The notes below the pieces were generated by a model. The model was given only the letters and a program-made list of their open reading frames with translations, was not told the origin of the DNA and made no database searches. Source: Eledone cirrhosa (taxonomy: Eukaryota). Taken from it: 64,000 nucleotides of DNA. The translations under genes and the position numbers were made by a program. Within the stretch, counting starts at the first letter, position 1. Each line of letters begins with the position of its first letter. The stretch spans positions 131,998,001 to 132,062,000 of the forward strand of contig OZ024742.1 of the NCBI GenBank assembly GCA_964016885.1, read 5' to 3'. Shown here one piece after another: positions 9,158 to 63,967 of this stretch.

Positions 9158-9367
9158 CGTTATTCCGGGTTGAATCGGAGGTAACCACAGTAAGTAAGGT
9201 ACTCAATACATAGCAGAGTATAATAGTTTTAATATAGAAGAGATTCTACAGGACTAGAACTGTTTCATTCATTAGAAATCATCAGGAATCTCCTGAGATT
9301 CCTGAGATTCCTGATGATTTCTAATGAATGAAACAGTTCTAGTCCTGTAGAATCTCTTCTATATTAA

Positions 9368-9372
<5 letters not shown>
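9158..9372. mobile_element. Family X fold-back insertion in (TA)n
   Basis: Perfect inverted repeat ~9224-9372 with an unpaired tail on the left. Confidence 0.9.
9304..9356 (+). ncRNA. Type I hammerhead ribozyme (GUA); mirror copy at 9240-9292 on minus strand
   Basis: gagattc-CTGATGA-tttctaatgaat-GAAAC-ag ttctagtc ct-GTA-gaatctc. Stem I is 7 bp and the core is intact; stem II is weak. Confidence 0.8.
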
Positions 9373-9434
<62 letters not shown>

Positions 9435-9439
<5 letters not shown>

Positions 9440-9826
9440 TTAGTTTGATGGTTCACCACTGGATGGAACTGGTCATACCGTATGGTCAAACTCGATGTAA
9501 TATTAGGAAGTGGACTCGACGTAATGCAACTCACCCGTCTTCGTTTGTGTTGTTGGTGGTGCGAGTACGGAGTTAATTATTATAAAATAACAGGAGGCTG
9601 GACTGGTGTAATTCCTTAAAAGGTTTATTATACTATGCTCATTTCAATGACCAGGTTCAGTATGAATCCGGTAACATCATCGGGTATTCGAAATTTAATT
9701 CCTTTGTTAAATTTCTAATACCTGATGATGTCACCGGATCCATACTGAACCCGGTCACTTAAATGATCATAGTATAATAAACCTTTTAAGGAATTACACC
9801 AGTCCAGCCTCCTGTTATTTGATAAT
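9435..9826. mobile_element. Fold-back insertion with two complementary-mutated hammerheads
   Basis: Inverted repeat 9579-9826. Right arm: atac-CTGATGA-...accgg..ccggt..-TAAA-tgatca-TA-gtat (9718-9775). The left arm keeps GAAA but has CCGATGA. Confidence 0.8.
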
Positions 9827-9870
9827 ATATACACACACACACACACACACCCATACACGAACACCCCCCC

Positions 9871-21256: not shown

Positions 21257-21301
<45 letters not shown>

Positions 21302-21396
21302 TCAGCCGTTAATATGCATAATTAGGCTGTTGATCCGTTAATATCCATAAGGAAAGTATATGCTGGCAGACGTTCAACCATCTGGCAGGAAGGTAT

Positions 21397-21439
21397 ACGA
21401 TGCTGACGATAGCTAATAAGCTTGAAACTAGTACATCGT
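21397..21439 (+). ncRNA. Minimal type I hammerhead (GUA)
   Basis: acgatg-CTGACGA-t agct aata agct t-GAAAC-ta-GTA-catcgt. Confidence 0.9.
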
Positions 21440-21836
21440 TCCTGTGTCCGTGTTGAACAAAAAGGTGACGTGGTTGCCTAAACACTGTACGGCGTAATTC
21501 GGGCTGTTTGTTTGTTTACAAACAAACCGAGCATTATAATAAATGTTCGGTTAACCGATACGTGCATATATATATATGTGTGCATGTATCTATATATATA
21601 CATACTACTGTACGTCTGTATACATATATGTATGTACGTATACATACATACTTACATTTAAGTAACTGCCGTACTAAGAGTGAGAAATGAAATTTCGTTT
21701 CATTCTATTCCATTTATCGATTTCGGTGCGCCCGGCCGACTAAACTCACTCGATATGCAAATTAGGCTGTTGAGCCGTTAATATGCATAAGGAAAGTATA
21801 TACTTTCAGACGTTCAACCATCTGGCAGAAAGGTAT

Positions 21837-21879
21837 ACGATGCTGACGATAGCTAATAAGCTTGAAACTAGTACATCGT
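21837..21879 (+). ncRNA. Minimal type I hammerhead (GUA), second unit
   Basis: Identical to 21397-21439. Confidence 0.9.
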
Positions 21880-22044
21880 TCCTTTGTCAGTGTTGAACAA
21901 AAGGATGACGTGGTTGCCTAATTATAATAAATGTTCGGTAAACCGATATGTGCATATATATGTGTGCATGTATGTATATATATATACATACTACTGTAAT
22001 CTGTATACAAATTTCGTTTCATTCTATTCTATATATATATATAT

Positions 22045-41984: not shown

Positions 41985-42178
41985 TTCTCTCCAGCGGTCT
42001 CTGTCCCTCATTATCGCTGCCATATCCTGCATCTCCAACAGACCAGTGTCTGTCCTTAGGGCATCAACATATCTTAACCTTGGTCTTCCTCTTCTAGTGT
42101 GTCCATGTAGGGGCTCCCAAAGGAGCACTCAATGCAATGTCAACTCTGGATGTCGGTGAGCATGTCCAGCCAACCTCA
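41985..42178 (-). pseudogene. RTE-clade LINE 3' fragment
   Basis: LRLAGHAHRHPE....VLLWEP.HG, then GRPRLRYVDALRTDTG....MRDRDRW after a frameshift. Confidence 0.75.
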
Positions 42179-42812
42179 AATAACAGATTAAAGTTTAAGC
42201 AAAGAATCGCTGCTTTCACCCTTAACGGGATCTTCTGAAACTAACAAAGTCAATCTGTAAGCGCAGAAGTGGATATTTCAAAAAACGTTGCAACCAGAGG
42301 AAGACAGGAAAACGATACTTTGGTTCGTGGAAACGTTCGCTGGCAAAGAACGGGAAAAAACGAATATAATACGTCATTAATAGGAGCGGTGAAAAACAAT
42401 TACGCGCAAAGACAGAACCACGTTTATAGTATAAGAGAGGTCGTAGACTAATGTTCTCTCAGGTGGTTCATAGAGACGTTCTCTAGCAATGAACGAAAAA
42501 AACGAGGATAATACGTCATATGTGGAGCGTGGAGAACAATAGCACGCAAAGACAAAACCACGTAAATGGTATAGCAGAAGTCGTAGACTAAAATTCTAAC
42601 TAGGAGACCTAATGAATCTCCGCTACAGAGTTAAGAACAAAGTAAATAAATACAATACAGAAGTAATAGAAATAAATAAATACATACACGCAAACAAATA
42701 CGTACATACACAAGCATACGCAAAACACTTACCATAGGTATACAAAACCACGCACATATAAATATGTGTGTGTGTATGCGTGTATACAAATAAATAAATA
42801 ATTATATAAACG
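42178..42812 (-). mobile_element. Solo 3' UTR/pLTR of the Naiad-like PLE at 55859-58300
   Basis: Highly similar to 55869-56500; includes the HHR variant at 42192-42242. Confidence 0.9.
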
Positions 42813-43833: not shown

Positions 43834-43835
<2 letters not shown>

Positions 43836-44582
43836 GGGGTCTTTCCTCATCCGAGTGCTCAAGCTACATACTGATTATGTATATACACTAGCTTGGCCGT
43901 ATTCTAAAGCTTCGTCAATGCTTTACTAAAATTTATATTTACTCCTAGAATTAACGATTAACTGATTAATTTAATTACATGATTCTATTGATTGATTAAT
44001 TGTTTAAGTTTGTTTGATAACTTCTGGTTGAGTGCTTTATTCGGTTTGTCTAAAGGGATTCATTGCTTTATCTCAAATTAGAATTCACCGCCTAAGCGGT
44101 GGTTACTTCCCTTGCAGTAAACCACGTGTCTGTGGCGACATTTAAAACTACAACATACCCGCTCAGGCTAAGAACAAAAGACTTGCTGATGAAGTAAATC
44201 CTATGTTCTGTCGTCAAAAAACATTATATTGCAGACTCCTGCAATAGGAATTTGTCGATCTTGGATTTGCAGAAACTTAGCGCTGGTGTTGAATGAGTTA
44301 TGTGATCTATATTGTTGATATACGATGTAAGTTATATATTTGGCACTCAGCCTCACCGCTATGTCCGGGTCAATATTAAATATTTTCCTGGGTCTTGTAT
44401 TTTCGTTGCTATAGTGATGCAGCTGAACTGCCGACCGCTATATCTGATTTGCTAAGGTGTCTGAACGTAATGTTATTACTCTGGGGTCTTTCCTCATCCG
44501 AGTGCTCAAGCTACAGACCGATTATGCATATACGCTAGCTTGGCCGTATTCTAAAGCTTCGTCAATGCTGTACTAAAATTTA

Positions 44583-44588
<6 letters not shown>
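43834..44588 (+). mobile_element. Partial tandem, 647-bp period, with long-stem-II hammerhead-like motif (44180-44299)
   Basis: 43834-43940 recurs at 44481-44588. CTGATGA-a gtaaatcc[insert]ggatttgc a-GAAAC-ttagcgctggt-GTT; stem I is poor. Confidence 0.7.
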
Positions 44589-44629
<41 letters not shown>

Positions 44630-44769
44630 TATATGTATCTAATTATATATATATATAATTATACATATATATATTCACATTTATATATATATATATATAT
44701 ATATACATAATTATATGTATATAATTATATATATAAAAATATATATATATATAATTATACATATATATA

Positions 44770-44848
<79 letters not shown>

Positions 44849-45019
44849 AATTAATATATCTACCGACATATGTATACAGATGAATACCTATGTTAGAAAA
44901 TATATATGTATTGCTTTAGTAACTTTGTGGTTCTATGCAAGGGGATGCAGAACAATTCTATGAAAGACGTAAATAAGAAAGTTATGAAAATTGACTTATT
45001 TACTAAAATTTCACTCCAA

Positions 45020-45115
<96 letters not shown>

Positions 45116-45316
45116 CATATATGTATATAATTATATATATATATATAATTATATTTATATATATATCTTCACACATATATATAGATATACATATAATTAT
45201 ATATAAATACATAATTATATTAGATAATTATATATATATAATTATATTTATATATATATATTCACTCATATATATAGATATACATATAATTATATATATA
45301 CATAATTATATGTATA

Positions 45317-45386
<70 letters not shown>

Positions 45387-45701
45387 TATTTATATATATA
45401 TATATTCCCATACACACATATATATATATATATATATAATTATATATATACACAATTATATGTATATAATTATATATATATACAATTAAGTTAAAGTGTA
45501 CATCTACATATGTATACGGAAGTATTAGTATGCATATAAATACACACATGTATACATATGTACATGTACTGAGTTTTTCACTAGACACTTTACAGTGAGT
45601 GTCAGCTAATCTGTATGTAACCACACAGACGGACCGGGTTTTAGAGTGATACGAGTTTTCAAGGTAACACATTTCCTCTATTCTCCAGAGAGCCAGACAG
45701 G

Positions 45702-45746
45702 AATATTGGACTAGTTTCGATGTTATTACATCTCATCAGCAATATT
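45702..45746 (-). ncRNA. Minimal type I hammerhead (GUC)
   Basis: aatattg-CTGATGA-gatgt aata acatc-GAAAC-ta-GTC-caatatt. Confidence 0.92.
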
Positions 45747-46170
45747 TACCCATCTTCCGGCTTCTCTGGAGAATTGTAAAAGCACATATCGTTATATGCT
45801 TTTTCTATGAAAATTAGTAGTGGGTAGACTAATTTGCATAGAACGTGAGTCATTGTACGCATCGGTTCAGCGGAAACGATAAAAATAAATAACGAAACGA
45901 AATTAAATTTCGTTTCGCTTCTAACTCACTTTTGTATGACTGACGCTTAAACAATTAAGTTAAAGTGTACATCTACATATGTATACGGAAGTATTAGTAT
46001 GCATATAAATACACACATGTATACATATGTACATGTACTGAGTTTTTCACTAGACACTTTACAGTGAGTGTCAGCTAGTCTGTATGTAACCACACAGACG
46101 GACCGGGTTTTAGAGTCATACGAGTTTTCAAGGAAACACATTTCCTCTATCCTCCAGAGAGGCAGACAGG

Positions 46171-46215
46171 AATATTGGACTAGTTTCGATGTTATTACAT
46201 CTCATCAGCAATATT
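46171..46215 (-). ncRNA. Minimal type I hammerhead (GUC)
   Basis: Identical motif one unit away. Confidence 0.92.
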
Positions 46216-46570
46216 TACCCATCTTCCGGCTTCTCTGGAGAATTGTAAAAGCACATATCGTTATATGCTTTTTCTATGAAAATTAGTAGTGGGTAGACTA
46301 ATTTGCATAGAACGTGAGTCTAATACTTCCGTATACATATGTAGATGTACACTTTAACTTAATTGTTTAAGCGTCAGTCATACAAAAGTGAGTTAGAAGC
46401 GAAACGGAATTTAATTTCGTTTCGTTATTTGTTTTTATCGTTTCCGCTGAACCGGTGCGTACAATGACTCACGTTCTATGCAAATTAGTTTACCCACAAC
46501 TAATTTTCATAGAAAAAGCATATAACGGTATGTGCTTTTACAATTCTCCAGAGAAGCCGGAAGATGGGTA

Positions 46571-46615
46571 AATATTGCTGATGAGATGTAATAACATCGA
46601 AACTAGTCCAATATT
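46571..46615 (+). ncRNA. Minimal type I hammerhead (GUC)
   Basis: Identical motif on the inverted arm. Confidence 0.92.
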
Positions 46616-47021
46616 CCTGTCTGGCTCTCTGGAGAATAGAGGAAATGTGTTTCCTTGAAAACTCGTATGACTCTAAAACACGGTCCGTCTGTGTGGTTAC
46701 ATACAGACTAGCTGACACTCACTGTAAAGTGTCTAGTGAGAAACTCAGTACATGTACATATGTATACATGTGTGTATTTATATGCATACTAATACTTCCG
46801 TATACATATGTAGATGTACACTTTAACTTAATTGTTTAAGCGTCAGTCATACAAAAGTGAGTTAGAAGCGAAACGAAATTTAATTTCGTTTCGTTATTTG
46901 TTTTTATATATATATATATATATATACATATAATTATATGTATATAATTATATATATGTGTATATATAATTATATTTATATATATATATATACAATTATA
47001 TTTATTTATATATATATATAT

Positions 47022-48666
<1,645 letters not shown>

Positions 48667-49496: not shown

Positions 49497-49699
49497 AACC
49501 AGTAAGACCCCGACAGCTGAGCTCAAGCCGTTTCGACGGCTAATTCTGGACTAAAATCTTTAGTCCAGAATTAGCCGTCGAAACGGCTTGAGCTCAGCTG
49601 TCGGGGTCTTACTGGTTCCTATTACCCACTCTACTACCTCAAGTATTGAGTACTTTGGTGCGTTATGGTCCACCTGGTTCCTTACCACATTTCCTTCGT

Positions 49700-49738
<39 letters not shown>

Positions 49739-49914
49739 ATATATAATTATATAACGAAGGAAATGTGGGAAGGAACCAGGTGGACCATAACGCACCAAAG
49801 TACTCAATACTTAAGGTAGTAGAGTGTGTAATAGGTACCAGTAAGACCCCGACGGCTGAGCTCAAGCCGTTTCGACGGTTTGAGCTCAGCCGTCGAGGTC
49901 TTACTGGTTCCTAT
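49494..49914. mobile_element. Two adjacent family Y fold-back insertions (49494-49702 and 49751-49914)
   Basis: Each is a hairpin whose arms carry the HHR 3' half GAAAC-ggc ttgagctca gcy-GTC-ggggt. Their tails are mutual reverse complements across a TA tract. Confidence 0.85.
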
Positions 49915-50439: not shown

Positions 50440-50442
<3 letters not shown>

Positions 50443-50987
50443 GGGAAACATGCATATTAACGGCTGAGTAGCCCAATTTGCATATCGAGTGGGTTAATCG
50501 GCCGGGTGCACAGAAAACGATAAACGGAAAAAATGAAACGAAATTTCGTTTCCCACTCTTAGTACGGCTGTTACTTAAATACAAGTATGTACACGTACAT
50601 ACATATATGTATACAGTCGTACGGTAGTATGTATATATATATATACATACATGCAGACACATATATATATATATATGTGTACGTATGGATTCACCGAACA
50701 TTTATTATAATGCTCGGTGTGTTTGGAAATAAACATCCCGAATTAAGCCGTACAGTGTCTAGCAACCATCGTTGCTCATTTGTTCAACACTGTCAAAGGA
50801 ACGCTGTACTAGTATCAAGCTTCTCAGCTATCGTCAGCAACGTATACCCCGGCCGATTAACTCACTCGATATGCAAATTAGGCTGCTCATCCATTAATAT
50901 GCATAAGGAAAATATATACTTTCAGACGTTCAACCATCTGGCAGGAAGGTATACGTTGCTGACGATAGCTAATAAGCTTGAAACTAG
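50440..50987. mobile_element. Family R2 head-to-head copy fused to the Neptune-like PLE
   Basis: Minus arm 50440-50847 (HHR with GATA instead of GAAA at 50801-50843). Plus arm 50848-50987 ends at GAAACTAG. Confidence 0.85.
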
Positions 50988-51147
50988 GGGTATTACTTCT
51001 ACTACCACTATGACCACGACCACTAACAACAACAACAACAACAATAATAATAATAATAATAAAAGTGATGTTGATGGTGATGATTAATAGAAAATGCTAT
51101 TTTCATCATTTCAAAAAAGCAAAACAATTGATACGTTGGATATGACT

Positions 51148-51318
51148 ATTGGTCGTTAGCATGCTCAACCAGCCGTGACGCTTAAACCAATCAGCTGTAG
51201 TAATTCAGTGAAACTACACACTGATTGGTCGAAATACAGTTTACAGGGCTTTTCATTCTGGAGCCACTTTTCTCTGTATAAAATGTATAAAAGGTAGGAA
51301 ATTTACCCATCTCATTAC
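51148..51318 (+). promoter_or_regulatory. Candidate Pol II promoter in the pLTR
   Basis: CCAAT/ATTGG boxes at 51148, 51187 and 51224; TATAAAA at 51277 and 51286; Inr-like TCATT at ~51312. Confidence 0.5.
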
Positions 51319-51355
51319 AGTTGAAAATTGCAAACTCGACTGTCACCACATATCA

Positions 51356-51394
51356 TGAACCTGAAGATTGCGAAAGCATGAAAGTACTTGTTCA
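51356..51394 (+). ncRNA. Minimal type I hammerhead in the 5' pLTR (CUU)
   Basis: tgaac-CTGAAGA-t tgc gaaa gca t-GAAA-gtac-TT-gttca; palindromic stem III AGTACT. Confidence 0.88.
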
Positions 51395-51598
51395 ATTAAC
51401 ACTTAGAATTTAATATTCTATCATACTATTTCATTATAATACCATTATATATATTTTAAAGGATTGTAAATAAAACGAGTAAATCAGACAAAGTTGGAAT
51501 TCCTCTTATTAATATAATCTTCTATACACAATCATACACACCCGTGTATATTTACCTATCTATATCTATATATATATTCCTATTGTGTATATGCCAAC

Positions 51599-52948
51599 AT
51601 GTCTGGAAAGCAACAAATGAAACCAACAGAATCAGAAAGAATTCTAAAGGAGATATCATCGAAATTATCAACACTTATCACGATGATGGACACACAATCC
51701 TCTATTTTAAAGGAAATAGAAAAACAATCTACAGACGGAAAACTTATAACTGAACATATAAACTCTGAAATTAAGAATTTAGCTGAAATTATACCAACAG
51801 TTATCAAAGATACAAGAGAAAGCCTACCACAACCCCCTTGGATGTCAGAAATAAACGAAAGAAATTTGGAAAACAAAACACATCGAATAAGAAAAGAAAT
51901 GTGGAAGACATGGAAAAAATTCCTTAACATAAGAAAACAAAATTTCTGGAAAGCATACAGATGCGAAAAATATGTCGAAACACATTCGAAATGGCTCTCT
52001 CTAACGGCACCCATACTCCCTCGTAAATACCTAATTACAGAAATTGCAGGAGAACCAGAAGAAGAAACAAAACTCCGATGGGAACTTACATTGACAAAAT
52101 TCAGGACCGACATCTCCATTTCTGAATGTAAACAATCCCGCTACAAAGCCAAATATGAAGCTATTGATGACCAAATTGAAGTTGAAATTTCAAAGCTAAC
52201 GACTGGTATTATAGCTGAAAAACTACGAGAACTATGGATCGGAGATATCTCAAAAGAAGAAAACAAATCAAGAAAGGTATGGCAGCAGAAACAATTATTT
52301 CTCGATGAATATGCTGCAAATTACGGTAAAGACTCTGGAACCCTGAGAAAAAGCATTAAAAGTGGACAATCTCATCAACACAACATACGCCAGAACACGT
52401 GCCAACACAAACACTCACCTTACCTTGAATCAAAGAAGAACTACGGTAATAACTCTTCGCTTTTTCTACAAAAACACCCTATCGCACACAACATGAACAA
52501 AAAGCACAAACACGATAGGTATTCCTTTGACCAGACCATGAGAAGTAGTAAAACCAGGAGATCATTCTCAAGATCTCAACAGAGACTACCAACAAGGAAT
52601 GTGGAAACAAAACGTAGAATAACCAGATCACTCTCAAGATCTCAACAGAGATTGCCCACAAGAAACTGGACGAAAAAACGATCTAAACCTGAAAGCAAAC
52701 CTAGGTCATTTTCCCAGATTGTTAAAAATAATGCTAACAGGAAGAAAAATAATATACAGAATACCAAAAATAGGACAAAATACATAACGAAACCAAATAT
52801 AATATCACGACCAAAAGTTCATCAAGCGAACACCAACAGGAATATAAATCCTGAACAGAGAAACATTCATTTTTTAACGTCAGGACAACAAAAACCGGAA
52901 AAAGAAAAACTCCAGGAGGAAACATACCCAAAACAGCTGTACACGTAG
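51599..52948 (+). CDS. PLE ORF1, 449 aa: helical/coiled-coil-like N-terminus, basic R/S/K-rich C-terminus
   Basis: Long ORF with ATG just after the 5' pLTR; duplicated SRSQQRLPTRN. Function unknown. Confidence 0.8.
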   Translation: MSGKQQMKPTESERILKEISSKLSTLITMMDTQSSILKEIEKQSTDGKLITEHINSEIKNLAEIIPTVIKDTRESLPQPPWMSEINERNLENKTHRIRKEMWKTWKKFLNIRKQNFWKAYRCEKYVETHSKWLSLTAPILPRKYLITEIAGEPEEETKLRWELTLTKFRTDISISECKQSRYKAKYEAIDDQIEVEISKLTTGIIAEKLRELWIGDISKEENKSRKVWQQKQLFLDEYAANYGKDSGTLRKSIKSGQSHQHNIRQNTCQHKHSPYLESKKNYGNNSSLFLQKHPIAHNMNKKHKHDRYSFDQTMRSSKTRRSFSRSQQRLPTRNVETKRRITRSLSRSQQRLPTRNWTKKRSKPESKPRSFSQIVKNNANRKKNNIQNTKNRTKYITKPNIISRPKVHQANTNRNINPEQRNIHFLTSGQQKPEKEKLQEETYPKQLYT

Positions 52949-55182
52949 ATCCTAAAATAATTAATTTATCTAAAAGAGATCTTGACAATGATGAAATGCA
53001 AATTCTGTCAAAAGGACTGAAATTCACACCGACTCCAACAGTCAACCACCAAGAACTGAAGGAGGATACCCAAGAATTCTGTCGAAAATTACGTCTTGTA
53101 GAATTCTTCGCTGATAAAAATAATGAGAGTGATGAATCACTAGTAAAGAATAAATCAAATTTCACTCCGCCAAAAGGAAGAAATATCTATCTCGACCAAT
53201 ACATTGACATCCTGTCTAAATTTCCTCTTAGACATAATACTAATGTTAGGCCAAACATTAACAAATCAGAAATGTCTGCACTTAAACGTATACAAAATGA
53301 TAAAACAATAATAATTAAACAAGCAGATAAAGGGGGTGCAGTTGTTATAATGGATACTGAATACTACAAGGATTTGGTTGAGGAACAACTGAAAGACACA
53401 ACATTCTATCATGAAATACCGTCAAATATAGACCACAACATCATGAAGAAGATCAACAACCTGGCTTCAAAATACCACAACTCATTTACTGATAAGGAAA
53501 GAGACTACATCACCAATTTTGAGCCGAAACCCAGCAACCTGTATGGCCTACCTAAAGTTCACAAGTCAAAAGAAATACAACTGGCAGTAAGAGAACAAAA
53601 CAGTGAGTACATTAAATTATTACACCCAAAAGACTTAAAACTTAGACCTATTATAGCTGGTCCAACATGCCCCACTCACCGTCTAAGCAATTTTGTTGAC
53701 ATTATTTTGAAACCACTATGTATTCACATACCCAGTTTCATCCGGGATGATATCGACTTCCTGTCCCATCTTCCCAAAACCACGGAAACGAATTCACTTC
53801 TACTCAGTTTTGATGTGGTAAGCCTTTACACCAACATTACACATGATTTAGGAATAAAGGCGGTTAAATACTGGGTGGAAAAACATAGAGAAGTGATTCC
53901 CATTAGATTCACAGCGCCATTTATATTAGACGCAGTTAAACTTATTCTGGAAAACAACACTTTCTTCTTCAATGGAAAGAATTACATCCAAATTAGAGGC
54001 ACAGCGATGGGAACGAAGTTTGCTCCCGTTTACGCGAACTCTGTAATGGGATACTTAGAACAACAACTCTACCAAGAAATAGAGGAAAAATATAGTACTG
54101 ACTTTAGAAAGTACATTGAAAAATCTTGGAAGAGATACCTTGACGACTGTTTCATCATCTGGACAGAATCTCTAGATACTCTGGATGAGTTCAATATCCT
54201 CCTGAATAACCTACACCCATCTCTCCAATTCACAAAAGAGATGAGTAGGACCAAATTACCATTCCTAGATATAATGATAATCAAAAACGACACCACCATT
54301 ACCACGGATATATATTATAAACACACAGACACCCATCAATATCTGAATTTTAAGTCGTGCCATCCACCTCATACAAAACGCAACATCCCATACTGCCTAG
54401 CCAGAAGAATTTGTACCATTGTAGAAGATACGAATAACAGGTACAAACGCCTAACAGAACTAAGAGAATTTTTGCTCAAACAAAAATACCCATCTCTACT
54501 TATAGAAAATGGCATACAGCGGGCTATAAAAATACCTATACAACAACTTAGAACAACCCAAAGAAGAAGAAACCAAGAACTGGTCATACCATTTATAATG
54601 ACACACAACCCATGTCACCAGAATATCTTCAACACTGCCAAAGCAAACCTACCGATCATTGCTCAAAGTAATGAATTAAAAGGCTTAATCACAGATCGAT
54701 CTTTGACTCTTAGTAAAAGACAGCCAAAAAATTTGAAGCAATTGCTAACAAAAGCAAAGTTTGACCTTAACAACAAAGACCAATCATTCACTGTATCTAA
54801 ATGCAATGATAATCGATGCGGCACATGTCAATCCATACACGCCGGTCAATATATGAAAACAAAAACTGGAAAAATATTCACAAATGCAAATATGAACTGC
54901 AAAAGCAGAAATCTAATTTACTGCATTAAATGCCCGAATTGTGAAGAACTATATGTCGGTCAAACTGGAAATGCACTATCGGAACGTGCACGGGTACACC
55001 GTCAACAAATCAGAGACCCAAATGTCCGTCAGATACCCCTAAGCGGCCACCTGGCAACATGTGGTCAGGGAATATTTATAATATTCCCATTCTACAAATT
55101 ACACAGCCCAAATGAAATCAAGAGAAAAATCAAAGAAAAGAATTTTATTGATAAATTCAAACCCAAGCTAAATGAACAATAA
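52855..55182 (+). CDS. PLE reverse transcriptase + Cys linker + GIY-YIG endonuclease (first ATG at 52996)
   Basis: IINLS..L...E..ILSKGLKF, ADKGG, YGLPKVHK, LRPII, SFDVVSLYTNI, GTAMGT, RYLDD, LPFLD, CNDNRCGTC, LIYCIKC..C...YVGQT, R..HR. Confidence 0.97.
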   Translation, partial: TEKHSFFNVRTTKTGKRKTPGGNIPKTAVHVDPKIINLSKRDLDNDEMQILSKGLKFTPTPTVNHQELKEDTQEFCRKLRLVEFFADKNNESDESLVKNKSNFTPPKGRNIYLDQYIDILSKFPLRHNTNVRPNINKSEMSALKRIQNDKTIIIKQADKGGAVVIMDTEYYKDLVEEQLKDTTFYHEIPSNIDHNIMKKINNLASKYHNSFTDKERDYITNFEPKPSNLYGLPKVHKSKEIQLAVREQNSEYIKLLHPKDLKLRPIIAGPTCPTHRLSNFVDIILKPLCIHIPSFIRDDIDFLSHLPKTTETNSLLLSFDVVSLYTNITHDLGIKAVKYWVEKHREVIPIRFTAPFILDAVKLILENNTFFFNGKNYIQIRGTAMGTKFAPVYANSVMGYLEQQLYQEIEEKYSTDFRKYIEKSWKRYLDDCFIIWTESLDTLDEFNILLNNLHPSLQFTKEMSRTKLPFLDIMIIKNDTTITTDIYYKHTDTHQYLNFKSCHPPHTKRNIPYCLARRICTIVEDTNNRYKRLTELREFLLKQKYPSLLIENGIQRAIKIPIQQLRTTQRRRNQELVIPFIMTHNPCHQNIFNTAKANLPIIAQSNELKGLITDRSLTLSKRQPKNLKQLLTKAKFDLNNKDQSFTVSKCNDNRCGTCQSIHAGQYMKTKTGKIFTNANMNCKSRNLIYCIKCPNCEELYVGQTGNALSERARVHRQQIRDPNVRQIPLSGHLATCGQGIFIIFPFYKLHSPNEIKRKIKEKNFIDKFKPKLNEQ
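52870..52876 (+). other. Candidate -1 ribosomal frameshift heptamer U UUU UUA
   Basis: caT TTT TTA in the ORF1 frame, inside the ORF1/ORF2 overlap 52855-52948. Confidence 0.6.
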
Positions 55183-55557
55183 TAACGCCTAGGGGTATTA
55201 CTTCTACTACCACTATGACCACGACCACTAGCAACAACAACAACAACAATAATAATAATAATAAAAGTGATGTTGATGGTGATGATTAATAGAAAATGCT
55301 ATTTTCATCATTTCAAAAAAGCAAAACAATTGATACGTTGGATATGACTATTGGTCGTTAGCATGCTCAACCAGCCGTGACGCTTAAACCAATCAGCTGT
55401 AGTAATTCAGTGAAACTACACACTGATTGGTCGAAATACAGTTTACAGGGCTTTTCATTCTGGAGCCACTTTTCTCTGTATAAAATGTATAAAAGGTAGG
55501 AAATTTACCCATCTCATTACAGTTGAAAATTGCAAACTCGACTGTCACCACATATCA

Positions 55558-55596
55558 TGAACCTGAAGATTGCGAAAGCATGAAAGTACTTGTTCA
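55558..55596 (+). ncRNA. Minimal type I hammerhead in the 3' pLTR
   Basis: Identical to 51356-51394. Confidence 0.88.
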
Positions 55597-55813
55597 ATTA
55601 ACACTTAGAATTTAATATTCTATCATACTATTTCATTATAATACCATTATATATATATTTAAAGGATTGTAAATAAAACGAGTAAATCAGACAAAGTTGG
55701 AATTCCTCTTATTAATATAATCTTCTATACACAATCATACACACCCGTGTATATTTACCTATCTATATCTCTATATATATTTATATATATATTCATATAT
55801 ATATTTATATATA

Positions 55814-55855
<42 letters not shown>

Positions 55856-55882
55856 TATATATTTATTAAAATAACAGATTAA

Positions 55883-55933
55883 AGTTTAAGCAAAGAATCG
55901 CTGCTTTCACCCTTAACGGGATCTTCTGAAACT
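55883..55933 (-). ncRNA. Hammerhead variant with CAGAAGA core
   Basis: agttt-CAGAAGA-t ccc gttaa ggg t-GAAA-gca gcgattctt tgc-TT-aaact; same at 42192-42242. Confidence 0.6.
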
Positions 55934-56860
55934 AACAAAGTCAATCTGTAACCGCAGAACTGGATATTTCAAAAAAAGTTGCAACCGGAGGAAGACAGGA
56001 AGACGATACTTTGGTTCGTAGAAACGTTCTCTGGCAAAGAACGGGAAAAAACGAATAATACGTAATTAATAGGAGCGGTGAAAAACAATTACACGCAAAG
56101 ACAGAACCACGTTTATGGTATAAAAGAGGTCGTAGACTAATGTTCTGTTAAGTGGTGCATAGAGACGTTCTCTGGCAATGAACGAAAAAACGAAGATAAT
56201 AAGTCATATGTGGAGTGTGGAGAACAATAGCACGCAAAGACAAAACCACGTAAATGGTATAGCAGAAGTTGTAGACTAAAATTCTAACTAGGAGACCAAA
56301 TGAATCTCCGCTACAGAGTTAAGAACAAAGTAAATAAATACAGTACAGAAGTAATAGAAACAAATAAATACATACACGCAAACAGATAGTACATACACAA
56401 GCATACGCAAAACCTTACCATAGGTATACAAAACCACGCACATATAAATATGTGTGTGTGTGTATGCTTGTGTACAAATAAATAAATAATTATATAAACG
56501 TATATAAGTAAATAAATACGTATATAACAAGCGCACACACATACCTACAAATAAATACACGAATGTTCGGAGACGTAGGTCAACTAAAACAAGAAGTACA
56601 CATATACACACACCCACCATACGTACGAACCTGCATACTCACGCAGACGCATAACTCCCGTATACACATAGCCAAACCCTAAATACCAGAATATGTAAAA
56701 ATTATACGCCATAACAGTCAAATATACGTACGAGAAGGTATACATACCTTCACAAAACATACGGGTAATATATACCTACCTATGCAAATAAGTAAAGGAA
56801 TAAACAAAACATATATTTAGCTCCCACATCGAGACGTAAAATATCCACGTATAGATCGTG

Positions 56861-58162
56861 CTATCCGTTAGGGTATAACGTGGGGCTGTAATACAGGAAA
56901 GGTTTGTGCAATTTATGTTTACAAGCCGAAATTGCCTCAGATTTTTTGTTTAAGATGTGGTCTGTGGCGTAGAGTATTTCCAGGGCCTCAGCGGCGCAGA
57001 GGTCACATGGTCTTTTATTTCCGTTATACGATCTAGCGCTAGCTAGGATCTCCCAGTGTAACTTATATTGGGTGTGGTTATCTTTTAGACTCCAGATATA
57101 AGCTGAAAGTGACGTCATATTCCTTCTTAGAGGGTAACGAAAAGAATGGGTATGCATGTAAAGACGCTGCTTGAAACTATTGGCGGTTAACCCTATGTAG
57201 GCCCTACGGGACGTGGGTGTTACAACCTTACATTTGTAGACAATGTTACTAGAGAGGCATTTCCCGGATAGGGGGCAATCAGCCCGATTCCTACAATTAA
57301 AGTTAGTACTAACTACAGGGTTGCACGTGTTCCTACGGCTAGGTAGTTTAGCTAAATTTGAAGCTGTGATGTTATGTGCAAGGTTAGGAGTCGTAGAGTA
57401 AGAAATTTTAATAGTATTTCTATTAAACATTTTAGTATATTTATGTGTAGGGGGAACATGCTTCGTAATAAGGGAAAGAAAGATCTTAGCTAATGGTGTG
57501 GCCACCTCCATATTATATGGTGGGTTAAACCAACAAATGCGACGGGATCTATTTCTTCTAGGTCTATTTTCGTACTCTGTATATGCTACCTTATCGACAA
57601 ATCCACTTCGAGCAAGAGCTTCATTGTAATAAGTGGAATGGTCGTTGAAAATGCGCTCGTTGGTGGAAAGACGGGAAAGCCTCAACGAAACGTTTTTTAC
57701 CAGGTTCTTGGTTATGCTGGCAGGATGGTTGGAATGCATACTTATGTAATTAAGCGTATCATTCGGCTTTCTATACGGGTAATACAACCCATTCAATAAA
57801 TTGAGGGTAACGTCGAGGTAATTAACGACCGAGAGATTGGCCTCAACCTGTATAGAGAGGTTGAAGCCTTTAAAGAAGGCTGTGAGTTCTTTTCTGAACC
57901 TGTCGCAAGCACGAGGTCCGCACTTAGTCATGGTCAAAAGACCATCGTCACGGTACAAACCACCGCCCGCGTTGGGGAATTCGTCCTTGATAGAGAAAAG
58001 AAGGAAAAGGCCAATAAGATCAGTAACCTCCGCAGAGTCACTGGCGCCCATACTCACGTTGAATGGGGTACTATTGGATTTTTTAATCCAAATAGAGTCG
58101 TCGAAATTAATCACCGACTTTCGGGCATTAAGGATGACATCAACTTCGAAATCCTTAACCAC
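56861..58162 (-). CDS. Truncated PLE RT (C-terminal part) + GIY-YIG, 433 codons, no true start
   Basis: [40 protein letters not shown]...[30 protein letters not shown]. Confidence 0.9.
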
Positions 58163-58453
58163 TGGGTGAAACTTAAGGGTGAAAGCAGCGATTCTTTGCT
58201 TAAACTTTATTCTGTTATTTTAATAAATATTTGCTCTACGGTTCTTATATATTTCATATATATTTTCCTTATCGAGCCCTCTTTGGATTTTAGACTTCAA
58301 TTTTATTATTATTACTATATATATTCATATATATATTTATACATATATATATATATATTCATATATATATTTATATATATATATTCATATATATATATTT
58401 ATATATATATATATTTATATATATATTCATATATATATTTATATATATATATA

Positions 58454-61607: not shown

Positions 61608-62265
61608 GTGTACATATAAAGATATATAAGTGCCAGAAGAAAGTTTCACTAATTTGATGCCTCTTGTAGTCTGGAGGTATGGTCAAACATGGGCATTGAA
61701 ACCCTGTATAGTAACTTTGTTCCGTGTATGAACATAAATAAATAATATAATTGTTTCGACTTTAGGCACAATGCCAGCAAATAAAGTACATTACTGGTAC
61801 TTTATTTTATCGACCCCGTAAGGATGAAAGGCAAAGTTAACCTCGGCGGGATTTGAACTCAAATCGTAAAGGGACGTAACTATGCTAGAAAGCATGGCGT
61901 CCAACCCTCTAGCGATACTGCCAATTCACCAAATAATATAATATACCTGCTTCCTTCCCGATTGAGCAATTTTCCTTTTCCCCTTTCAAACCTATGGATA
62001 TTGCTACATACACACACACGTATATATATATGTATATATACAGTAGCGGACAGGGTTAAAAAATATTGGTTGCTTCGAGATTAAGGGGGCCCTCCTACAT
62101 ATAGAATGCTCTCATTAATTTTTATAATGAATAAATAATATAAAAAAAAAAATACATAAGTGCAAACAAAACAGCGCAAAAATATCTTACACTATCCAAT
62201 AGAAAATATGTATTTTGCAAAATCCAGAGACTTTCAATATTGACCATTGGTCTTTGACACTCATT

Positions 62266-62323
<58 letters not shown>

Positions 62324-62407
62324 ATAATAATAAATGTAAAGATTCTGTTAAGGGTGAAAGCAGCAATTCTTTGCTTAAACTTTAATCTGTTGTTTTAATA
62401 TATATAC

Positions 62408-62495
<88 letters not shown>

Positions 62496-62697
62496 CAAAG
62501 AAAGTGTGGTAAGGAACCAGGTTGGCCATAACGTACCACAGTACTCGATACTCAGGGTAGTAGAGTGGGTAATAGGAAAAGAGTCAGGACCCCGAATGCT
62601 GAGCTCCGGCCGTTTCCACAATTAGATCCTTTCGGATCTAACTTTGGAAACGGCCGGAATTTAGCCATCCGGGGGGATGGGGGTGCTGGACTCTTTT

Positions 62698-62751
<54 letters not shown>

Positions 62752-63222
62752 TTTGTGTTTGTGTGGTAATTCTGGTCTGAAGTTTGATCCAAGTTGGATC
62801 TAGGGTTCCCGGTAAAACCTTTTAGTTTTTTTTCTATGCGATGTAAAATCAAAACTGAAAAAGATTACATGTACCTTTCGAGCAGGGTTGAGCCCAAAAC
62901 GTGGATCTCCACCCTCAATAGGACCTACAGCCAATCCACTGAATCATTTACGTAAACCAACCGAAAATTCATACTTAGGAACTTACTTTCAAAACTTTCA
63001 AAACAAAATGTTATGGTGTCTTTCATGTCTTTCTTAATGTTATTGTTCCTACAGTATATTTCTAAATCATAAGGGAGCTACTACAATCACATTTTGTTCC
63101 TCTTCTATCAAGACTATAGTTTAAGCTGTAATCGATGTTTCCTTTCTATTGCACCTCATTTCTCCACCCCTCTCTCTTTCTATTTGTGATATTTGAATCT
63201 ACTATGACTTGGGATTACGTTA

Positions 63223-63300
<78 letters not shown>

Positions 63301-63962
63301 TGTGTGTACATATAAAGATATATAAGTGCCAGAAGAAAGTTTCACTAATTTGATGCCTCTTGTAGTCTGGAGGTATGGTCAAACGTGGGCATTGAAACCC
63401 TGTATAGTAACTTTGTTCCGTGTATGAACATAAATAAATAATATAATTGTTTCGACTTTAGGCACAATGCCAGCAAATAAAGTACATTACTGGTACTTTA
63501 TTTTATCGACCCCGTAAGGATGAAAGGCAAAGTTAACCTCGGCGGGATTTGAACTCAAATCGTAAAGGGACGTAACTATGCTAGAAAGCATGGCGTCCAA
63601 CCCTCTAGCGATACTGCCAATTCACCAAATAATATAATATACCTGCTTCCTTCCCGATTGAGCAATTTTCCTTTTCCCCTTTCAAACCTATGGATATTGC
63701 TACATACACACACACGTATATATATATGTATATATACAGTAGCGGACAGGGTTAACAAATATTGGTTGCTTCGAGATTAAGGGGGCCCTCCTACATATAG
63801 AATGCTCTCATTAATTTTTATAATGAATAAATAATATAAAAAAAAAAAATACATAAGTGCAAACAAAACAGCGCAAAAATATCTTACACTATCCAATAGA
63901 AAATATGTATTTTGCAAAATCCAGAGACTTTCAATATTGACCATTGGTCTTTGACACTCATT

Positions 63963-63967
<5 letters not shown>
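61608..63967. repeat. Near-identical ~660-bp direct duplication (61608-62270 and 63304-63967), each with a family 1 SINE
   Basis: Period 1696-1697 bp with very few differences; SINEs at ~61749-61930 and ~63445-63626. Confidence 0.92.
62494..62702. mobile_element. Family Y-related fold-back insertion
   Basis: Imperfect hairpin centred on ttagatcc tttc ggatctaa; tail homologous to 49751-49860. Confidence 0.75.

Follow-up and report, generated by a model that had tools for sequence, protein, structure and literature searches.

How does a short non-coding hammerhead repeat come to stand in two back-to-back arms inside a TA tract? The question is raised by a locus in the genome of Eledone cirrhosa, which we studied within a window of 64,000 nucleotides (assembly GCA_964016885.1, contig OZ024742.1, positions 131,998,001 to 132,062,000, forward strand); all coordinates below are positions in this window unless a genome location is given. 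The repeat, here called R1, has a period of 469 bp and contains no ORF, which bears out the unit given in the original prediction, although the layout of three hammerheads in tandem did not hold. The locus consists of a minus arm (arm A, 45483–46320, 1.8 units, ribozyme sense leftward) and a plus arm (arm B, 46320–46907, 1.25 units, ribozyme sense rightward), set head-to-head within (TA)n, with two hammerheads on the minus strand and one on the plus strand. Both arms are 5'-truncated and meet in an inverted junction at 46320 with an overlap of 1 nt. Arm A ends outwardly at a fixed terminus A (..ACTTTAACTTAATTG, then TA repeats) and arm B at a fixed terminus B (..TTCGTTATTTGTTTTT, then TA repeats), flanked by (TA)n target tracts at 44581–45482 on the left and 46905–47025 on the right. 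The stretch between sites A and B (46835–46907, plus strand) is a PLE-type tail that is found at the arm B end only, is near-invariant between subfamilies and includes a hairpin (46869–46894, plus strand); a long AT-rich hairpin is predicted directly 5' of site A (46748–46819, plus strand). R1 is an abundant non-coding hammerhead repeat, and this back-to-back insertion in a TA tract is one of its young copies.

A scan of the window with strict stem requirements, covering both strands, returned exactly three matches, at 45739 (minus), 46208 (minus) and 46578 (plus), confirming the three identical hammerheads with a palindromic ACTAGT stem III that had been read from the sequence beforehand. These type I hammerheads lie at 45702–45746 (minus, predicted cut after 45709), 46171–46215 (minus, predicted cut after 46178) and 46571–46615 (plus, predicted cut after 46608), the third within a long stem I extension at 46541–46638. 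All three share stem I AATATTG/CAATATT, core CTGATGA/GAAA, stem II GATGT/ACATC, the ACTAGT palindrome and a GTC cut triplet, and so carry the type I core CUGANGA/GAAA, an NUH triplet and stems I–III; many old-type R1 copies have GTT as the cut triplet. The Rfam check proposed in the original prediction gave a mixed outcome: Hammerhead_HH9 matches all three at 32 bits (E 3e-4), short of its gathering score of 52, and Hammerhead_1 was absent among the matches listed (150 of 185).

The long stem I extension and the further hairpins fold as described at first reading, with z-scores against shuffles of −5.8 for the hammerhead region and −11.2 for the whole unit. As a monomer, stem III of R1 amounts to 2 bp and a 2-nt loop (palindromic ACUAGU), and in the fold predicted for the monomer the catalytic CUG is taken up in pairing with UAG. 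Cleavage would therefore likely depend on a dimer, whose second copy would supply its ACUAGU palindrome to the active fold, or on a protein. In frog retrozymes, only one of nine dimers cleaved in vitro (10.64898/2026.07.22.740005).

Six compensatory pairs, one of them in stem II, were found among 34 R1 sublineage units from different loci. The predicted structure is 99.4% paired in these 34 related rows, from which it was itself derived, vs 31–50% when slid, and the relatedness of the rows makes the shuffle control lenient. The earlier claim that the hammerheads stay invariant while the rest of the unit varies had to be abandoned. With 13 single-copy changes in about 1,430 nt at the locus, about 1.3 would be expected in the three 45-nt hammerhead spans, so their identity does not exceed what chance would give at such low divergence. 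Of the 314 within-locus variants counted in 85 young loci, 25 fell inside the hammerhead vs about 30 expected, on which count we rejected special within-locus conservation; conservation of the hammerhead appears between sublineages only. Unit positions 232–235 (46631–46634), at the 3' entry of the long stem, form a hotspot of within-locus substitutions of several kinds at many loci, which may reflect RT errors at the hairpin base.

Exact R1-type hammerheads number 9,294 in the 3.0-Gb genome, and a wider hammerhead class has 40,090 exact genome matches (control, 3). Copies at 97–100% identity occur on many contigs, and together with the B-end matches given below (2,538) they mark R1 as dispersed and recently mobile. 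Its arrays comprise at least two successive non-coding units, each with a type I hammerhead, and reach 31 units; the unit is highly self-paired, as the z-score of −11.2 and the six compensatory pairs attest. Having no ORF, and therefore neither RT nor GIY-YIG, R1 is not an autonomous PLE. The consensus units of young and old-type R1 are 89% identical, with the end region almost unchanged. Among the seven RNA runs on record, none is listed as containing the R1 unit. A sister family, R2, is 62% identical to R1 over the whole unit (about 430–440 bp; 50440–50987 and 21300–22040), is far commoner than R1 by hammerhead count, and its loci carry paired A/B ends of their own. At G000:C1:55968-55990 kb, one R1 insertion with identical flanks is present twice, 18 kb apart (L118 and L119), which may be a segmental duplication or an assembly repeat.

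R1 arms abut (TA)n directly and have two stopping points, site A and, about 70 nt 3' of it, site B. Site A followed by AT repeats has 331 genome matches with the young-subfamily pattern and 1,732 with a broader one, and site B followed by AT repeats has 2,538, with minus-strand matches partly double-counted in these figures and no matches for the controls of either end. We sampled loci in list order from the A- and B-anchored searches. At 68 B-anchored loci the opposite arm ended in A 37 times and in B never; no arm was detected at 13 (four of which hold, by eye, an A-like remnant of 7–11 nt), another end was found at five, and 13 were unresolved. At 62 A-anchored loci the opposite arm ended in B 40 times and in A never (none, 7; other, 3; unresolved, 12). 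The 130 end-anchored loci thus yield 76 distinct A+B pairs, one locus being in both resolved sets, and no A+A or B+B pair. One best-match locus, L010, was not part of these samples; both of its ends are B, and its flanks mirror each other.

An inverted truncated copy with a one-sided tail of 30–40 bp is the known signature of PLE insertion (PMC8557442, PMC3846280). R1 loci likewise show an inverted 5'-truncated copy and a tail at one end only, and the target is (TA)n, as in the Hydra and Neptune clades. It is this signature, a head-to-head layout with two fixed ends, that the original prediction missed, while the retrozyme reading that it proposed is supported. We consider it very probable that R1 is mobilised by a PLE. 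In vitro, a lizard PLE starts reverse transcription at two adjacent internal sites that bound its tail, and both strands are extended (PMC11167929).

We infer the following course of events, in which R1 would probably be a non-LTR retrozyme, that is, a non-autonomous PLE whose 469-nt circles are copied by a PLE enzyme from both sides of a (TA)n break. R1 transcripts would cleave themselves and close into 469-nt circles. A PLE protein, probably a dimer, would bind the tail region and cut both strands of the (TA)n tract. Both priming events would use a single RNA molecule, with one DNA end starting at site B and the second at site A, which lies 70 nt upstream. Each cDNA would then travel round the circle over a variable distance, and the two free cDNA ends would be joined head-to-head through overlaps of 0–4 nt. 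Any A-to-I edits of the circle would likely be repeated in every unit, and some long arrays would grow later by DNA duplication. That the template was a circle seems a reasonably good bet. The fullest version, in which each insertion records one circular RNA reverse-transcribed by two PLE active sites at once (with starts at A and B) and A-to-I edits enter the germline, is offered tentatively, as a reading that may fail about as readily as it may hold.

The inner ends of the arms bear on the priming step. They lie within 20 nt of each other in eight of 84 pairs vs 7.4 expected, and the lengths of paired arms are uncorrelated (rho −0.02). Ends that are independent in position and length fit neither fold-back self-priming, the model of PMC3846280, nor twin priming on one linear RNA of the L1 type, and we rejected both. 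Overlaps at the junctions average 1.8 nt vs 0.75 under the null (35 of 45 junctions; the remaining ten have inserts). The strict pairing of one A with one B, together with the independence of the inner ends, leads us to favour coupled priming from both DNA ends rather than fold-back. In L1 twin priming, two priming events give a head-to-head inverted product in which the second start varies and the segments do not overlap; R1 insertions are head-to-head too, but they begin at two fixed sites, and whole units are common to the two arms.

What was copied can be read from the variants. At each R1 locus the units share one haplotype that differs from those of other loci, and of the 124 variants that are fixed in one arm, 118 recur in every copy of the opposite arm. 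Variants common to all units suggest that a single molecule was the template for many rounds of copying. On the ribozyme strand these all-unit variants are biased: A>G outnumbers T>C by 14:4, counted by distinct site, in the 85 young loci (p 0.03; three of 88 loci fell below the identity cut), by 4:1 when only sample-private variants of young loci are taken (p 0.4), and by 10:2 among sample-private variants of 51 old-type loci (p 0.02). Repeats of the same insertion were excluded (L067, L119, L034, L038, L040, L049, L053, L058), and a first per-locus count of 26:3 was dropped as inflated by shared ancestry, its loci being non-independent. Selection for G-U pairs alone would predict an excess of C>T, and none is present among the all-unit variants; such selection could add to the A>G bias. 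The enzyme of A-to-I editing would presumably be ADAR; no clear ADAR neighbour preference appeared at 14 A>G sites (5' G at 0 of 14 vs 26 of 146).

One locus, L128, has ten A>G changes specific to it within 125 nt, and every copy that spans them shows them again; an edited stretch of 39 nt has two genome matches, both at L128. An edited monomer would be expected to leave this pattern if it had been copied repeatedly. Two units of L128 are identical and a third differs at four sites, so one of them may be a DNA duplicate. A second candidate was rejected as a private edit: the A>G of L243 is a mosaic, present in five of ten units of one arm and none of 12 of the other, and proved to be a sublineage mark with 285 matches in several arrays.

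The alternative that survives best, though we hold it unlikely, takes uncleaved linear read-through transcripts of existing arrays as the template of a non-autonomous PLE, with DNA duplication supplying homogeneity and length and the hammerhead a mere passenger. PLE insertion in vitro did not need hammerhead cleavage (PMC11167929), and 5' ends are weakly enriched at the predicted cut (11 of 198 within 8 nt vs 6.1 expected). DNA duplication, too, is evident in long arrays: higher-order variant patterns, mostly within one arm, mark L241, L244, L245, L248, L091 and the 31-unit array (L151 and L152), and with L107 included these one-arm patterns have periods of 2, 3–4, 6 or 7. They may stem from later DNA duplication or from multimeric templates, and they imply that array length is not a pure rolling-circle product. 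Edits of a linear multimer should, however, differ between units, whereas single-unit variants are strand-symmetric (A>G vs T>C 37:42 in 460 units from 64 loci, with no unit holding at least three private A>G) and it is the all-unit ones that are biased. The haplotypes moreover span both inverted arms, at 118 of the 124 fixed variants, and no shared junctions or carried-over flanks occur among the loci listed.

A cleaved linear monomer might instead be copied again and again without ligation, if the RT, on reaching the 5' end of the monomer, jumped to its 3' end or to that of a sister molecule. Three observations would suit this course: 5' ends are in slight excess at the cut, L106/L081 show a small duplication there, and R2 joins a PLE two bases before the R2 cut (a junction described below). 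That excess is weak at best as a sign of RT stopping at the hammerhead cut (p 0.04, with the 8-nt window picked post hoc; L045 was left out of the count). Most arms, 138 of 190, run across the predicted cut, 42 of them twice, so the template was continuous there. Long arrays have no indels at the cut, the 20 identical units of L242 are seamless and span both arms, and identical edits would require a jump onto the same molecule every time. We regard such jumping as improbable, and copying of a circle remains the reading we prefer. Arm lengths are not exponentially distributed (KS p 0.02 and 0.0007, arms running off the fetched DNA left out).

The partner PLE presupposed by that reading was sought in the window and around R1 loci. 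The window holds two PLEs, a Hydra-clade element (PLE2) and a Neptune-like one (PLE1). The family of PLE2 is abundant, has intact ORFs of 712 aa and shows the Hydra-clade motifs RWR, DKT, CxCX5C, CxxC and CxH; opposite arms ending in A' and B' were seen in about ten of 30 loci, those with both ends in the fetched DNA, and the rest show one end. The window copy (55869–58296) is 5'-truncated, its main arm ending in A' and a short inverted arm in B', and a second end copy lies at 42178–42636; directly before A', both copies have, by eye, a hammerhead-like fold with core CAGAAGA instead of CTGANGA. PLE1 has RT and GIY-YIG domains, a Neptune-type linker (by eye), copies at 99% identity and one clear A/B pair in 30 loci. 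Its young window copy (50985–55770) has direct pLTRs at 51063–51511 and 55265–55714 that are 99.8% identical, a coding region in two frames (51518–52948 and 52855–55182) and a minimal hammerhead with palindromic AGTACT near 55558–55594.

Other elements of the window share this setting. At 50985 an R2 plus arm joins the 5' end of the young full-length PLE1 through a CTAG overlap; the rest of the R2 arm is absent at the far PLE end, and the join is unique in the genome. It may have arisen when the RT switched to a cleaved RNA as template, or from an insertion accompanied by a deletion. At L233 the inverted junction of a Hydra-type PLE is occupied by an R2 element flanked by TA. A partial tandem of a 997-bp unit in (TA)n (47026–48534) has a left end resembling the Hydra PLE end A' and is probably another non-autonomous PLE family. 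Partial-tandem elements with periods of about 647 and 1,696 bp, also bounded by (TA)n, lie at 43834–44588 and 61612–63964, and long near-perfect inverted repeats, some around (TA)n tracts, at 9219–9378, 9578–9827 and 49575–49878.

R1 might also be a pLTR, solo or in tandem, that belongs to a coding PLE yet to be found. This would accord with its insertion marks, every one of which is of PLE type, and with frog retrozymes, which are related to pLTRs (10.64898/2026.07.22.740005). PLE coding sequence does adjoin an R1 arm at four loci, but all four junctions differ, and the neighbours belong to two PLE clades and are decayed copies; they look like insertions of R1 into older PLE copies. Neither window family has an R1-like pLTR, tail or terminal sequence, and R1 showed no sequence likeness to their pLTRs. 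A PLE protein screen of 150 fetched R1 loci and 20 sister-family loci, of thousands, found no recurrent ORF junction, the sister-family loci gave no pLTR-ORF join, and arms of up to 31 units run with no coding insert. We give this origin a very small chance. Satellite DNA, or fold-back palindromes arising from DNA processes alone, could account for the higher-order repeats of long arrays but hardly for thousands of dispersed loci, asymmetric junctions, strand-biased variants and compensatory pairing, and is already largely refuted by the fixed paired ends, which leaves it scarcely credible.

The assignment of R1 to the retrozymes is thus supported by dispersed non-coding hammerhead repeats, a fold with compensatory changes, the absence of an upstream coding partner in the loci examined, and the signs of a repeatedly copied monomer template. 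As in the metazoan non-LTR retrozymes described in PMC7229834 and 10.64898/2026.07.22.740005, its low-GC tandem units are non-coding, highly self-paired and bear one type I hammerhead each, and thousands of dispersed copies coexist with PLEs. In contrast to the elements described in these two sources, R1 has a palindromic minimal stem III and forms head-to-head insertions with two fixed paired ends in (TA)n; RNA and cleavage have been demonstrated for the coral, mussel and axolotl retrozymes treated there, whereas for R1 both are predicted. The term "inverted" is absent from the available text of PMC7229834, a head-to-head layout was not seen in that of Li, Clavereau and Pollet 2026 (10.64898/2026.07.22.740005), and the accessible parts of both leave head-to-head arms, paired ends and the sharing of edits undescribed. 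A wider search of the literature on retrozymes, including those of cephalopods, and on edited genomic copies, with subscription journals mostly outside its coverage, found no head-to-head retrozyme layout. Copying of circles into tandem cDNA by PLEs has been proposed for metazoan non-LTR retrozymes (PMC7229834; 10.64898/2026.07.22.740005).

Compared with endonuclease-bearing PLEs as described in PMC8557442, PMC3846280 and PMC11167929, above all the Hydra and Neptune clades, R1 shares head-to-head arms, a tail at one end, two start sites, the (TA)n target and a hammerhead in the repeat. It differs in having no ORF, a tail of about 70 nt rather than 30–40, and many units in both arms. Non-autonomous Chlamys elements such as MRC1 are, like R1, non-coding PLE derivatives with multicopy head-to-tail insertions, but they mostly have no hammerheads and share 3' sequence with known partners (PMC8557442), whereas no partner of R1 was found among the PLEs examined.

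Overall, R1 fits the sequence definition of animal non-LTR retrozymes. Two steps in the biology of these elements have so far mostly just been proposed: the movement of animal retrozymes by PLEs via circular RNA, and the origin of the inverted arm and one-sided tail of PLEs. With thousands of natural insertions, all built on a template of 469 nt, R1 makes both steps open to counting. If the fullest version of the reading given here is true, these insertions would be genomic evidence for circle-templated retrotransposition, and the inverted arm and tail of PLEs would be explained as coupled double priming. The young, intact Hydra- and Neptune-type PLEs of the same genome allow a direct test in vitro.
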